Source of the DNA: an uncultured Acidimicrobiaceae bacterium
Lineage (GTDB): Bacteria; Actinomycetota; Acidimicrobiia; Spongiisociales; UBA5794
Length of the DNA stretch: 51,939 nucleotides
Reading direction: 5' to 3'
Assembly (NCBI GenBank): GCA_964387145.1
Contig: CAYLVM010000004.1
Location: 2,796 to 54,734 of the forward strand
Shown here: one piece after another, positions 1,461 to 5,753 of the stretch
Position numbering within the stretch: the stretch's first letter is position 1
Layout: the number at the start of each line of letters is the position of its first letter
The notes under the pieces: generated by a model
Databases searched by the model: none
Told to the model about the DNA's origin: nothing
Seen by the model: the letters and a program-made list of their open reading frames with translations, nothing else
Translations under genes and position numbers: made by a program

Positions 1461-2477
1461 TCACGACGAACCAGACGCCCCGACACCGTCGAAGGATGGC
1501 GGACCCTGTTCGATGGCACCCTCGGGGAACCGGTCCCGACATGTGTTGACCGCCATCGACCAGAGAGCGAAAGCACCGTCCTGTGGAGATGGAGGACCAC
1601 CAATGCTTGCATCCCGTACCGACGCCCCAGCATCGAGATCCGTCGCGATGAACTCGGACGACAACGCAAGGGCGACATCGGGGTTCCACACCCCTTCGCT
1701 GCACATGCGGTCGAAGCGGTCCCGCCACACGACAGGGTGGAACTGAGCGAGGCCGAGCATGTTCACCCAGGTCCGCACTTGCATGGTCTCGTCTGGTGTC
1801 AACTCGATTCCCCGATCGACCCTGACGAAGAACAGCAGGGTGTAGCTGCCATCTACGAGCCACTGCATCGTGCCATCGACACTCGACACCCTGAACCCCG
1901 TCGGATTTCCCATGGCTTCTCGAAAGACGCTCGGTGTGAACATGAGACCAGTGCCGTCCTCCACATCGCAGAGCGCGGCACTCCTCACTACTTCACCGAG
2001 GACGACCGGTGTGCCATCGACAGTGAAGCCGTCGGGGGTGAAGCCGGCGCCGTACACGGTGAAGTCGTTGCAACCCGTGTTCCCGACGGTCCTCGATCCG
2101 ATCTCGATCGTAGGGAGCGTTGCAGAGTTCACACCCACCTCAACCGCTGTGAACTCTCCGTCGACGATGAACGAGTCCAGCATCCAGGCACCATCGACGC
2201 GAGTCACAGACAAGCTACCGGTGGTGACGGTGCCGGTCGACCGCATCAGGATGGCCGTTGGGATGCTGAGAGCTGCGACGACAGCCGCCGCGGCCACCGC
2301 TACGAGCCATGGCCATCGACGGCGCCCGGGCTCTTGGTCGAACGCGGCAACGCCATCCGACGTCTGATCGAGGACGCGAAGCAGCGTTCGTTGGCCGGCA
2401 GAACCCTCCGACCAACGGTCCGCCTCGTGCGTAGGAAACGGGTTGATGTCCCGCAGGAGTGTGTTGTCAAACCCCAT
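1461..2477 (-). CDS. Single-pass membrane protein with META (HslJ-like) domain; putative anti-sigma factor
   Basis: One TM helix (WPWLVAVAAAAVVAAL); META motif GNTGCN...C; C-terminal two-Cys helical domain. SD GGAGG before ATG 2477; overlaps the sigma stop codon. Confidence 0.7.
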   Translation of the reverse strand: MGFDNTLLRDINPFPTHEADRWSEGSAGQRTLLRVLDQTSDGVAAFDQEPGRRRWPWLVAVAAAAVVAALSIPTAILMRSTGTVTTGSLSVTRVDGAWMLDSFIVDGEFTAVEVGVNSATLPTIEIGSRTVGNTGCNDFTVYGAGFTPDGFTVDGTPVVLGEVVRSAALCDVEDGTGLMFTPSVFREAMGNPTGFRVSSVDGTMQWLVDGSYTLLFFVRVDRGIELTPDETMQVRTWVNMLGLAQFHPVVWRDRFDRMCSEGVWNPDVALALSSEFIATDLDAGASVRDASIGGPPSPQDGAFALWSMAVNTCRDRFPEGAIEQGPPSFDGVGASGSS

Positions 2478-3024
2478 TGGTTCCTCCATCGGTCGACGTC
2501 GGGAGTTCGGAGGGATCGAGTCCGACCGTCCGCATCTGGGAGGTGAGTCGTCGGCGGGCCCGCGCCAGTCGCATCCGAAATGCGGCAGGTGTGATACCCA
2601 TGGCGGCCGATGCTTCCCGCGCGTCGAGCCCTTCCCAGCTCACCAAGAGGAGCGTCTCCCTGTCTGTCTCATCGAGCGCAGCAAGGGCATGGTTCGCGGC
2701 GATCGCTCCAGACGCCTGCTCGGCAACGGCGTCACCGGGCAAGGACCGATCCATGTCGATGCGTTGGCGGAGCTTCATCCAACGGTCCTGTGCGCGGTAG
2801 CGATCCCGGATGACCCTGCGCGCAACACCGTAGAGCCAAGGCAGTTCCCGCTGAGGACGCTGTGTTCTGTGTCGCCACGCAACGACGAACGTGTCCGCAA
2901 CGACATCTTCGGCATGTTGAGGGCCGATCCGGCGGACAGCGTACGCGAAGATGCGGTCGGCATGTGTGCTCCACATCCCCTCCAACCACTCCCGGTCGTC
3001 AATACTCACGTCGAGAACCTGCAT
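2467..3024 (-). CDS. ECF RNA polymerase sigma factor
   Basis: Region 2 (AEDVVADTFVVAWR, PWLYGVARR) and region 4 (LLLVSWEGL...RMRLARARRRL). Confidence 0.92.
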   Translation of the reverse strand: MQVLDVSIDDREWLEGMWSTHADRIFAYAVRRIGPQHAEDVVADTFVVAWRHRTQRPQRELPWLYGVARRVIRDRYRAQDRWMKLRQRIDMDRSLPGDAVAEQASGAIAANHALAALDETDRETLLLVSWEGLDAREASAAMGITPAAFRMRLARARRRLTSQMRTVGLDPSELPTSTDGGTNGV

Positions 3025-3110
3025 GTCGGTCGGTTGCTCCCTGTCACAAGGGTATATGGCCGGCACCCACGGCGGTGCAACAGGAGTTACAGCGCGCAGT
3101 GGCTTCGATG

Positions 3111-3602
3111 TCAGGAGACCGATGTGGTGACGGTCACGTCGACGGTATCGGGTGCGGTGTCGACCCACTGTGATCCGTCCCACAGGAACAGGTACGTTCG
3201 GCCGATGAACTCGAATTGTCCTTGGGAGATCCACACATCGACGCCGACGACGTCGCCACGTTCTGTCGTTGCAACGGGGGTAACACTCAACATGATCGAG
3301 CCGTCTCGGTATCGGCCGGTGGAGTCATATAGCTGCTCGAGCTGGGACTCACTCACATACTCGACCTCGTCGGTGAACCGTTCGACGATCGCCTCCCTGA
3401 CCGCGGGTGGTGTGGAGTCGGGGGCGAGGATCGGTGCACCGGCACAGGCGGATTCCTGACATGCCCGCATGAACGCTCGTGCCTGAAGCTGTGTCGAGAG
3501 CTCCGGTGTCATCTCCGGGACGGGGACACCGGACCCTGTGGACGCACAAGCCGAGCCGACGAGCAGGATCACAACGACCAGGGCGGTGATCCGTGTCCTC
3601 AC
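3111..3602 (-). CDS. Hypothetical lipoprotein
   Basis: Signal peptide with lipobox GSAC; purine-rich SD; plausible globular body. Confidence 0.7.
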   Translation of the reverse strand: MRTRITALVVVILLVGSACASTGSGVPVPEMTPELSTQLQARAFMRACQESACAGAPILAPDSTPPAVREAIVERFTDEVEYVSESQLEQLYDSTGRYRDGSIMLSVTPVATTERGDVVGVDVWISQGQFEFIGRTYLFLWDGSQWVDTAPDTVDVTVTTSVS

Positions 3603-3674
3603 GTTGCCCCCTTCGCCTCGAGTGTGCTCCGAAACCTACCATCGCCCACCGAAGGTGGGCGTTGCCTCGTGAAC

Positions 3675-3703
3675 TTGGCCAAAGCCGTCCGAGTGCGTAT
3701 CGT
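3675..3703 (+). promoter_or_regulatory. Putative sigma-A promoter for the peroxiredoxin gene
   Basis: TTGGCC-N17-TATCGT about 30 nt upstream of ATG 3733. Confidence 0.45.
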
Positions 3704-3732
3704 CGGAGTGTCGATCGATCGAGAAGGTGACG

Positions 3733-4452
3733 ATGGCTGAAGAAGCGATCGGATGTGGTCGGGTGACCGCCACAGCCGAGGACGACACACCCGCAGAAGG
3801 ACATGACCTGATCGGGTCCAACGGAGTGCAACAGGAGGTTCAGATGACCGCGACGGCAGGACAGAAGGCTCCAGAGTTCACCGCCCCTGCGTATCACAAG
3901 GGTGGCTTCACGCAGGTGAGTCTCTCAGAGTTCGCAGGCAAGTGGGTGTTGTTGTGCTTCTATCCGGGTGACTTCACCTTCGTCTGAGCGACTGAGGTGT
4001 CGGCGGTCGCCGACAGGTACTCGGATCTTCAGGAACTCGGTGTCGAGGTCATCTCCGTCAGTGTCGACAGTCACTTCGTTCACAAGATGTGGAACGACTA
4101 CGAGCTCTCCAAGATGGTCGACGGCGGTGTTCCGTTTGCCATGGCTTCAGATCAAGCCGGGAACATCGGGCGTGCCTACGGTGTGTGGGACGATAACGCC
4201 GGCGTTGAGCTGCGTGGTCGATTCATCATCGACCCCGACGGCGTGATCCAGGCGATGGAGGTGCTCACGCCTCCCGTAGGGCGACGCATCGACGAGACGA
4301 TCCGTCAGATCCAGGCCTACCAGCTCGTCAGAGAGAGCAAGGGTGCCGAAGCGACACCGGCCGGCTGGAAGCTTGGCGAACCGACATTGAAGCCGGGACC
4401 CGACCTCGTCGGGAAGGTGTGGGAAGTATGGAACCCATCCACGGAGACGTGA
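3733..4452 (+). CDS. prxU: Selenocysteine-containing peroxiredoxin (AhpC/Prx1 type); Sec encoded by TGA 3985-3987
   Basis: ORFs 3727-3987 and 3997-4452 are in one frame. Read through, they give FYPGDFTFV-U-ATE, the FTFVC(P)TE peroxidatic motif. GRFIIDPDG and VGR motifs follow; SECIS hairpin directly downstream. Confidence 0.95.
3992..4024 (+). promoter_or_regulatory. Bacterial SECIS element
   Basis: Upper stem TGTCGGC/GCCGACA (3998-4004/4009-4015) closes a GGTC loop that starts 17 nt after the TGA; lower stem CTGAG/CTCGG. Confidence 0.85.
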
Positions 4453-4465
4453 ACCTCTCAGCAGA

Positions 4466-4499
4466 GCCGGTGTGACGAAGGGTTTCCCACAACACCGGC
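4466..4499 (+). terminator. Hairpin after prxU
   Basis: GCCGGTGT/ACACCGGC 8-bp inverted repeat; no U-tract. Confidence 0.4.
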
Positions 4500-4583
4500 C
4501 TCACTACTGAGCCACCACCTGCTCGTGGATGTGTGGGTCGGCTGGGGATGAGCGGGCTGCACACCGACCCGTACACTTCCAGG

Positions 4584-5753
4584 ATGCCGCGTTCAGTCCG
4601 ATCATCACTTGCCTTCCTCTCGGCCGAGCGGTTGGTGATGAACACGGCGTACCGGTTCGTGTATCCCTTCCTTCCGGTTATCGCTCGTGGGCTTGGTGTC
4701 CCCTTCGAACAGGCTGCCCTGCTCGTGAGCGTGCGCCACTTCTCCGGCCTTGCAACTCCGGCCGTCAGCAAGTTGGCAGGGGTGGGTGAGCGCCAAAGAC
4801 GTCTGATCATCACCGGAATCATGCTGTTCATCGTCGGATCGGCGGTCACAGCCCTCACGAGCGTGTACGTCGGTGCGCTCATCGGCTTTGCGTTGCTGGG
4901 TCTTGCCAAACCGGTATTCGACGTGTCATCGCAGTCCTACGTTGCAGCGCGGGTTCCCTACGAGCGCCGGGCACGCTACCTGGCGACGTTCGAGTTCACC
5001 TGGGCCGGTGCCCTCCTCATCGGAGCCCCTGCCACGGGGTGGCTGATCGCAAGCACCGATTGGCGCGTGCCGTTCATCGTGTTCGGCGTTCTGAGTGTCG
5101 CCGCCCTCGCTGTCACGGGGAGGTTCATCGATGCTGATGGCCGGGGAGTCGATCAGAACGGAGATCACGACCGTTTCACGTCATCGGGACGGAACTTCCT
5201 GCTCGTTGCGGGCCTTTTCGCTCTTGGATCCGAGATGATCGTGGTCGTGTTCGGAGCGTGGCTCGAGAACTCCTTCGGACTGACCGTCGTCGCACTCGGA
5301 GGGGCAGCCTTCCTCATCGGTGCTTCCGAGCTTGCAGGGGAGGGCGCCACGTTCGCATTCACCGACAGGATCGGGAAGCTTCGTGCTGTGCTCGCAGGAC
5401 TCGTCGTGTCGGGTGTGGGGTACGCCCTGCTCGTGCCGGCAAGCGTTCATCTCGGAGTCGGGCTCGCCGTCCTTGCGATCGCCTTGTTCGGCTTCGAGTT
5501 CACGATCGTTTCGTCGATTCCCCTCGCCTCCGAGCTGATGCCGGGCTCGAGGACCAGGTACCTCGCATGGATGGTCGTGTCGATGAGCCTGGCGCGGGGC
5601 ATCGGCGCTGCAGTCGGGCCGATACTGTTCGACTCCTTCGGGATACCTGGACCTGCGCTTGCCGCCCTCGCATCGGTGGTCGTCGCTGCCGTGGTCCTCG
5701 TCACCGGCGTGAGCGAAGAGACCCGCGAGATCGCGACGAGTACCTCTCCCTGA
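4584..5753 (+). CDS. MFS transporter
   Basis: About 12 hydrophobic segments; TDRIGKLR loop motif; leaderless start (TACACT-6nt-ATG). Confidence 0.88.
   Translation: MPRSVRSSLAFLSAERLVMNTAYRFVYPFLPVIARGLGVPFEQAALLVSVRHFSGLATPAVSKLAGVGERQRRLIITGIMLFIVGSAVTALTSVYVGALIGFALLGLAKPVFDVSSQSYVAARVPYERRARYLATFEFTWAGALLIGAPATGWLIASTDWRVPFIVFGVLSVAALAVTGRFIDADGRGVDQNGDHDRFTSSGRNFLLVAGLFALGSEMIVVVFGAWLENSFGLTVVALGGAAFLIGASELAGEGATFAFTDRIGKLRAVLAGLVVSGVGYALLVPASVHLGVGLAVLAIALFGFEFTIVSSIPLASELMPGSRTRYLAWMVVSMSLARGIGAAVGPILFDSFGIPGPALAALASVVVAAVVLVTGVSEETREIATSTSP

Follow-up and report, generated by a model that had tools for sequence, protein, structure and literature searches.

A prxU gene with an in-frame TGA at the peroxidatic codon, very probably encoding an intact selenoperoxiredoxin, in an uncultured Acidimicrobiaceae bacterium

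The locus lies in a window of 51,939 nucleotides, by which we mean the whole stretch of DNA that was analysed (contig CAYLVM010000004.1, positions 2,796 to 54,734). In the list of open reading frames (ORFs), two entries share one frame: ORF 3727..3987, which terminates at the TGA of 3985-3987 right after GKWVLLCFYPGDFTFV, and ORF 3997..4452. When TGA is translated as selenocysteine (Sec, U), 3733-4449 becomes a single protein of 239 residues, in which U85 is the sole recoded codon and other stops or frameshifts are absent. The sequence-only reading of this DNA had described one TGA at the catalytic position after FTFV and no other lesion, which is borne out by the translation from the ATG at 3733 to the stop at 4450-4452; its span of 3733-4452 is correct and corresponds to the long ORF with the stop included. 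The features of the locus are as follows.

3722..3729, forward strand: weak Shine-Dalgarno (SD)-like stretch AGAAGGTG before the long start ATG (3733-3735), best match AAGG
3733..4452, forward strand: long frame of prxU, 239 codons plus the TGA stop at 4450-4452, from translation with TGA as U and the match to NF040737
3733..3843, forward strand: N-terminal arm of 37 residues, MAEEAIGCGRVTA..., followed by a low-complexity linker, from conservation
3754-3756, forward strand: codon TGT of the invariant Cys8
3833..3846, forward strand: internal SD AGGAGG (3833-3838) and internal ATG (3844-3846) with N5 spacing, for an arm-less form of 202 residues
3955..3957, forward strand: codon TGC of Cys75, 10 residues before Sec, invariant in 78 sequences
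3985..3987, forward strand: UGA, almost certainly read as Sec at the peroxidatic position (U85 in the long form, U48 in the short form)
3998..4015, forward strand: putative SECIS hairpin, stem 3998-4004 UGUCGGC with 4009-4015 GCCGACA, loop 4005-4008 GGUC, from folding and covariation
4354..4356, forward strand: codon ACA of Thr208, at the canonical C-terminal resolving Cys position of AhpC/2-Cys peroxiredoxins, from the 1we0 alignment

To the left of prxU, an ECF-type sigma factor ORF (2467-3234, reverse strand) overlaps by about 120 nt with a lipoprotein-like ORF of 163 residues (3111-3602, reverse strand). The latter matches no Pfam family, is divergent from prxU and is syntenic in the same-genus genome G006. 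A scan of 3400-4700 for promoters and terminators found none. Just 3' of the prxU stop, at about 4457-4511, there is an imperfect long hairpin (CCGGUGU...ACACCGG within CUCAG...CUGAG), whose energy is ordinary (z -1.14).

For the protein product, Pfam AhpC-TSA matches residues 43-174 (1.2e-38), across the TGA, and 1-cysPrx_C matches residues 195-230. The NCBIfam model NF040737 (peroxi_PrxU), an equivalog model named “thioredoxin-dependent peroxiredoxin”, gives the long form 379.6 bits against a cut-off of 270 and aligns residues 7-236 with profile positions 3-232 of 233, while the arm-less short form scores 373.2 bits against the same cut-off. The AhpC equivalog TIGR03137 reaches 198.8 bits, which is under its cut-off of 272. 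The residues P78-G-D-F-T82-F-V-U85 fit PxxxTxxU, the peroxidatic motif quoted in the part of PMC13188914 that was available. The best solved relative is AhpC 1we0 (1.6e-44, residues 43-229), and the AF2 model, made from a 78-sequence alignment, has a mean pLDDT of 82.9, with most of the peroxiredoxin (Prx) core above 88. We hold with high confidence that 3733-4452 is an intact prxU gene, which would encode a thioredoxin-fold peroxiredoxin of the AhpC/Prx1 type with Sec as the peroxidatic residue.

We searched one genome per prokaryote species with a sequence pattern and got at least 599 matches, of which at least 587 encode a relative. The best 80 of these at least 587 relatives (72-84% identity) were retained, and the tally of the TGA codon covers these 80 loci, the window and four pieces from three same-genus genomes. 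It turned out that the homologous codon is TGA in 84 of 84 sequences of this set that were matched by the motif pattern, and also in L082, whose FTFSU variant falls outside that pattern. The same-genus genomes with prxU (G002, G005 and G006) all have TGA at this codon. At their aligned ends these genes have TAG (40), TAA (23) or TGA (20), except for one that is cut off by the contig end; since the ends alternate among the three codons, TGA functions as a normal stop at other places in these genes. Mean column identity of the Prx core is 82%, and both halves flanking the TGA are under strong purifying selection. The PrxU copy of L082 (2890-3606), which comes from a long-read MAG, has many odd substitutions (FSPGDFTFSU, RRRF), and its arm frame is garbled; this copy may be either decaying or affected by assembly errors.

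The putative SECIS hairpin has a stem of 7 bp and starts 11 nt 3' of the UGA. Its fold energy is not unusual for its composition (z -0.55), and because stability by itself is unremarkable, the support for the hairpin rests on covariation. In an ungapped alignment of 83 sequences the helix is paired in 91.9% of cells, while control helices slid along the alignment are merely 27-78% paired. Helix cells changed on both sides number 44, compared with 7.6 after shuffling, and none of 500 shuffles reached the observed covariation score. For example, pair 18:27 occurs as GC (59), AU (14), CG (5) and UA (4), and pair 15:30 as GC (48), AU (13) and UA (5). All four columns of these two covarying pairs are third codon positions (Val/Asp and Ser/Ala codons), which indicates selection on RNA structure in addition to that on the protein. 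In 74 sequences the loop reads GGTC and in 9 AGTT, so the central GU is constant. We interpret the hairpin as a bacterial SECIS comparable to that of E. coli fdhF, whose apical loop it resembles. An Rfam search of 3000-5500 with E up to 10 returned no SECIS family and only matches at chance level. Another helix, pairing columns 4-10 with 20-26, was rejected, as its covariation did not go beyond that of the shuffles. By analogy with the family, SelB-GTP with Sec-tRNA(Sec) would bind the hairpin and Sec would be inserted at the UGA, while the TGA at 4450-4452, which has no hairpin, would cause termination.

The genome, 96% complete with 2.64 Mb in 200 contigs, contains the machinery for this decoding. 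A tRNA-Sec scores 70.6 bits against a cut-off of 47 and is also called SeC by ARAGORN, with anticodon tca. The genes selA (392.9 bits) and selB (335.8 bits) adjoin on one contig (C108), and selD (402.5 bits; L017) is on another (C64), all over their curated cut-offs. The Sec machinery had been presumed from the letters of this locus, and all four components were thus found. The proposed reading as a Sec-containing peroxiredoxin, recoded by UGA at its peroxidatic site, likewise holds, through the 379.6 bits of NF040737, the conserved TGA and the covarying hairpin.

Other ORFs of the genome also contain in-frame TGA codons. The selD product itself contains Sec (GAGUACK). A thioredoxin-fold ORF, L108 (contig C13:3200-4200, frame 0; AhpC-TSA, 28 bits), has an in-frame TGA in FG-U-AGC (UxxC) and would correspond to the ‘Prx-like thiol:disulfide oxidoreductase’ selenoprotein of existing catalogues. 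L109 (contig C51:15250-16035, frame 1) combines a lipoprotein-type signal, MKRIVMLLTFSLVAAACSS, with a downstream TlpA/ResA-like domain, whose W-U-SVC motif (UxxC) contains an in-frame TGA; its product is likely to be a thiol:disulfide interchange protein with Sec, and the contig stops shortly afterwards. This vent-type genome would invest selenium in peroxide defence besides SelD and thiol-disulfide proteins.

If the UGA simply terminated translation, the locus would be a pseudogene or a truncated gene, with an inactive N-terminal piece of 84 residues or a C-terminal piece of 151 residues from the GTG at 3997. ORF calling with table 11 does yield exactly these two pieces, and public gene calls include fragments of 151 residues with 87-98% identity. 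However, none of the 85 homologues examined, which span 13 named phyla, has lost the TGA, both halves of the gene are under strong purifying selection, the hairpin covaries and the Sec machinery is complete, and we consider this reading very improbable. Among the best 120 database matches, 28 entries are truncated, 87 give W at the Sec position and just 5 have Cys there. The expectation that standard pipelines would miscall such a gene as a pseudogene agrees with the 28 truncated calls and the 87 with W, but it does not extend to every standard pipeline, since NCBI curates NF040737.

An assembly or sequencing error, with a true TGC or TGT and a Cys peroxiredoxin as the real product, could point to the Cys forms that exist in the clade (the 5 of the best 120 matches), but it is hardly credible given the TGA at the same codon in G002, G005, G006 and the best 80 of at least 587 relatives, and the consensus SECIS stem and loop in the window. 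It is this conservation on which we would base the TGA call at 3985-3987 in the present assembly. An alternative code (table 4 or 25) with UGA as Trp or another standard residue, which could draw on the 87 W calls, has a negligible chance, as the terminator of prxU itself is TGA and the aligned ends use TGA (20) besides TAG (40) and TAA (23), Trp at the catalytic Cys/Sec site would make a dead enzyme, and the genome has tRNA-Sec and SelB. We read the W at the Sec site as a code-4 translation of TGA. The lineages with W calls are not known to use code 4, so these calls are best read as gene-caller artefacts. The in-frame TGA of prxU almost certainly encodes Sec.

The main value of this result lies in annotation, for callers of the Prodigal type leave a fragment of 151 residues or put Trp for the UGA. 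Because the gene is cut or mistranslated in this way, surveys of selenoproteomes and antioxidant systems in uncultured Acidimicrobiia and many other phyla would under-count PrxU.

The N-terminal arm follows the pattern M-x-[ED]-x-P-x-G-C-A-R-x-T-G-x-V-x-G and then gives way to a variable linker in which Pro, Glu, Ala, Ser and Thr are frequent. The arm was found in 79 of the 83 loci with readable upstream sequence and is missing in L050, L063, L075 and L078, while the upstream frame of L082 is garbled. Cys8 is invariant in the arms (78 of 78), and the arm length across relatives is 33-41 codons. In the block GCARxTGxVxG, the entropy at the three codon positions is 0.78, 0.65 and 1.72 bits; as the variation is mostly at third positions, the block is translated. 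The arm also forms part of the NF040737 profile. In the window it deviates from the consensus and has Ala where Gly13 is nearly invariant. The AF2 model shows it as disordered (pLDDT <50 at residues 1-7 and 14-34), with a short low-confidence strand at 10-13, and the structure search gave no solved counterpart of the arm. A literature search, largely at listing level, found no published account of the arm or of its role in recycling.

Both ends of the arm are marked by possible translation starts. At the long start, 76 of the 78 rows with an assigned start have ATG and the other 2 have GTG; two rows of the 80 in the tally have none, and one of these, L078, is a false arm call. An SD-like motif precedes the long start in 75 of 80 rows and is absent in 5, and most relatives have AGGAG(G) there, whereas the window has AAGG only. 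At the internal site, 74 of 80 rows have ATG and the remaining 6 have GTG, and an SD-like motif precedes this start in all 80 as well as in three arm-less rows. This internal SD is AGGAG or AGGAGG in 64 of 80 rows, and it is encoded by conserved Lys-Glu codons (AAGGAG or AGGAGG) just before the Prx core. The two conserved ribosome-binding sites suggest that an armed long form and an arm-less short form are both made from prxU. What is at stake in the role of the invariant Cys arm and the conserved second start is biology of the whole family and is not specific to the window.

In the catalytic cycle expected from the family, the selenolate would reduce H2O2 or an organic hydroperoxide and become a selenenic acid. 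The enzyme has Thr208 in place of the C-terminal resolving Cys: the 1we0 alignment sets ‘eatpagw’ against ‘evcpakw’, with Thr208 opposite the resolving Cys of AhpC (the VCP motif). Among 78 aligned armed relatives, this Cys is lost in 71 and retained in 7 (L042, L080, L084, L086, L087, L088 and L098). A search of the genome for AhpF (TIGR03140) reached at best 235.4 bits against a cut-off of 502.9 and covered only positions 213-507, the reductase half, while a thioredoxin-reductase-like gene was found. Since the resolving Cys is absent and no AhpF is encoded, regeneration would most likely proceed via thioredoxin and thioredoxin reductase, in line with the NCBIfam name. The reductant could attack the selenenic acid directly, or a Se-S bond could form with an internal thiol, for which Cys8 on the flexible arm and Cys75 are the candidates, both invariant. 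Cys8 appears the most attractive resolving candidate, because it is invariant, is tethered and is usually found where the C-terminal Cys is lost.

The enzyme could work as a 1-Sec peroxiredoxin, in which the selenenic acid is a direct target for reduction by thioredoxin or a small thiol, or else is reduced via Cys75 of the core, and the arm would serve something else (a guard against over-oxidation of Sec, partner or metal binding, or regulation). Cys75 is invariant, is kept in Cys-form homologues too and is retained in the arm-less relatives that also miss the C-terminal Cys; the absence of AhpF and the presence of a thioredoxin-reductase-like gene agree with this scheme, but the invariance of Cys8 is left unexplained by it. 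We give it slightly less than an even chance.

A less probable scheme makes Cys8 of the long isoform a tethered resolving thiol, which would form a Se-S bond with Sec85 of the same or a neighbouring subunit before thioredoxin acts, so that the arm replaces the lost C-terminal one. It would account for the 78 of 78 invariance of Cys8 within a GCAR-x-TG block under purifying selection, the presence of the arm in 79 of 83 loci and within the curated NF040737 profile, the linker length held to 33-41 codons and the loss of the C-terminal resolving Cys in 71 of 78 proteins. On the other side, the arm is undocked in the AF2 model (pLDDT <50), and the C-terminal Cys is retained by 7 armed proteins. 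Besides, L050, L063, L075 and L078 have neither the arm nor the C-terminal Cys, and the same is true of the Cys-form homologues P0004, P0052 and P0065; since such arm-less relatives exist, some of them Cys forms, the arm is not needed for function. The conserved internal start implies an arm-less product as well, and the literature search, with sources mostly seen as listings, gave no published description of a tethered Cys8. Tentatively, and with no more than a minor share of our confidence, PrxU may have a recycling architecture unlike that of other Prx1-type enzymes, which combines a selenenylsulfide between the Cys8 arm and Sec85, an arm-less isoform from the internal ribosome-binding site, and mixed oligomers whose ratio tunes protection versus turnover. 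No matching paper on such a mixed armed and arm-less architecture came up among these listings.

To figure out how prxU is distributed, we summarized its occurrence at several taxonomic levels. The best 80 of at least 587 relatives come from 13 named phyla, namely Acidobacteriota (24), Chloroflexota (21), Pseudomonadota (12) and ten more phyla that contribute 1-3 loci each. The view that PrxU occurs mainly in Firmicutes and Deltaproteobacteria is not upheld, with a relative in at least 587 species-representative genomes and with Acidobacteriota, Chloroflexota and Pseudomonadota leading the best 80. Closer to the window, prxU with one TGA was found in 4 of 10 genomes of the genus (the genome of the window, G002, G005 and G006) and in none of 51 beyond it, and one genome outside the genus (G017) has an ordinary Prx only, with 34% identity. 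The six same-genus genomes without a prxU match have completeness of 63-96%. In a class sample of 301 genomes, NF040737 is over its cut-off in two, the genome of the window and G191, which comes from a different family within that genome's order.

The Sec trait shows another pattern. Its use had been called patchy in Actinobacteria, but in the order of the window's genome 53 of 61 genomes have selB over the cut-off, which makes the gene near-universal there. (The 61-genome tallies include the unpublished G039 and G050, which both have selB and both lack PrxU.) With selB in 53 of 61 genomes against prxU in 4 of 61, confined to the genus, and in 2 of 301 of the class, the Sec trait is old and general here and prxU sporadic. 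Six genomes from other families of the same class (G159, G301, G118, G081, G163 and G222) have Prx1/AhpC-type matches of 186-196 bits, below the cut-off, with one TGA inside the match; these may represent additional Sec-Prx variants or simply stops that lie upstream.

The tree contains 86 rows, with four database proteins added and with L018 (the window itself among the scanned loci), the fragments L021 and L023, and L082 left out. Phyla are interleaved on it (25 label changes, minimum 12). The window pairs with G006 (SH-aLRT 97), and a weakly supported group (91) joins these two with G005, one further MAG and the arm-less Acidimicrobiia MAGs L063 and L075, nested among Anaerolineae sequences. 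The gene order lipoprotein-prxU-MFS is common to the window and G006, prxU and the MFS gene are on different contigs in G005, and in G003 (94% complete) the MFS gene has another upstream neighbour and prxU was not found. The suggestion of horizontal acquisition is plausible in view of the 2 of 301 genomes in the class and the gene context that varies within the genus, but it is not demonstrated, because the tree branches are weakly supported and neither donor nor direction is proven. Distribution, tree and context plausibly fit gain and loss, possibly by horizontal transfer.

Peroxiredoxins are a long-catalogued family of bacterial selenoproteins, and PrxU is separately curated by NCBI. The prototype of PrxU is from Eubacterium acidaminophilum (Sohling et al. 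2001, Biol Chem 382:979, as cited in the available parts of PMC13188914 and PMC8533274). Twelve Sec-Prx genes were listed in 2006 in the accessible part of PMC1794560, and the entry in Table 1 of PMC13188914, a source likewise seen in part, reads “Peroxiredoxin (Prx) PF00578 TxxU”. Sec peroxiredoxins of the AhpE or BCP/PrxQ type share with the window the UGA at the peroxidatic codon and the split gene calls, but belong to different Prx subfamilies. The prototype PrxU is reportedly about 203 residues long, which would mean that it has no arm.

Compared with AhpC and typical 2-Cys peroxiredoxins (Amphibacillus xylanus, 1we0), the product of the window has the same fold, the same active-site scaffold and the same C-terminal ‘PAGW...LKPG.DLVGK’ tail. 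It differs in having Sec for the peroxidatic Cys, Thr208 for the resolving Cys and an extra N-terminal arm, in falling under the TIGR03137 cut-off and in lacking an AhpF partner. With the PrxU family it shares Sec at PxxxTxxU, a SECIS directly 3' and the AhpC/Prx1 fold, and it matches the whole profile, arm included. No defining feature differs; its peculiarities are an off-consensus arm (Ala at Gly13), a weak SD at the long start and a host class that seldom has PrxU (2 of 301 genomes). In conclusion, the prxU described here is an ordinary member of the curated and widespread PrxU family.
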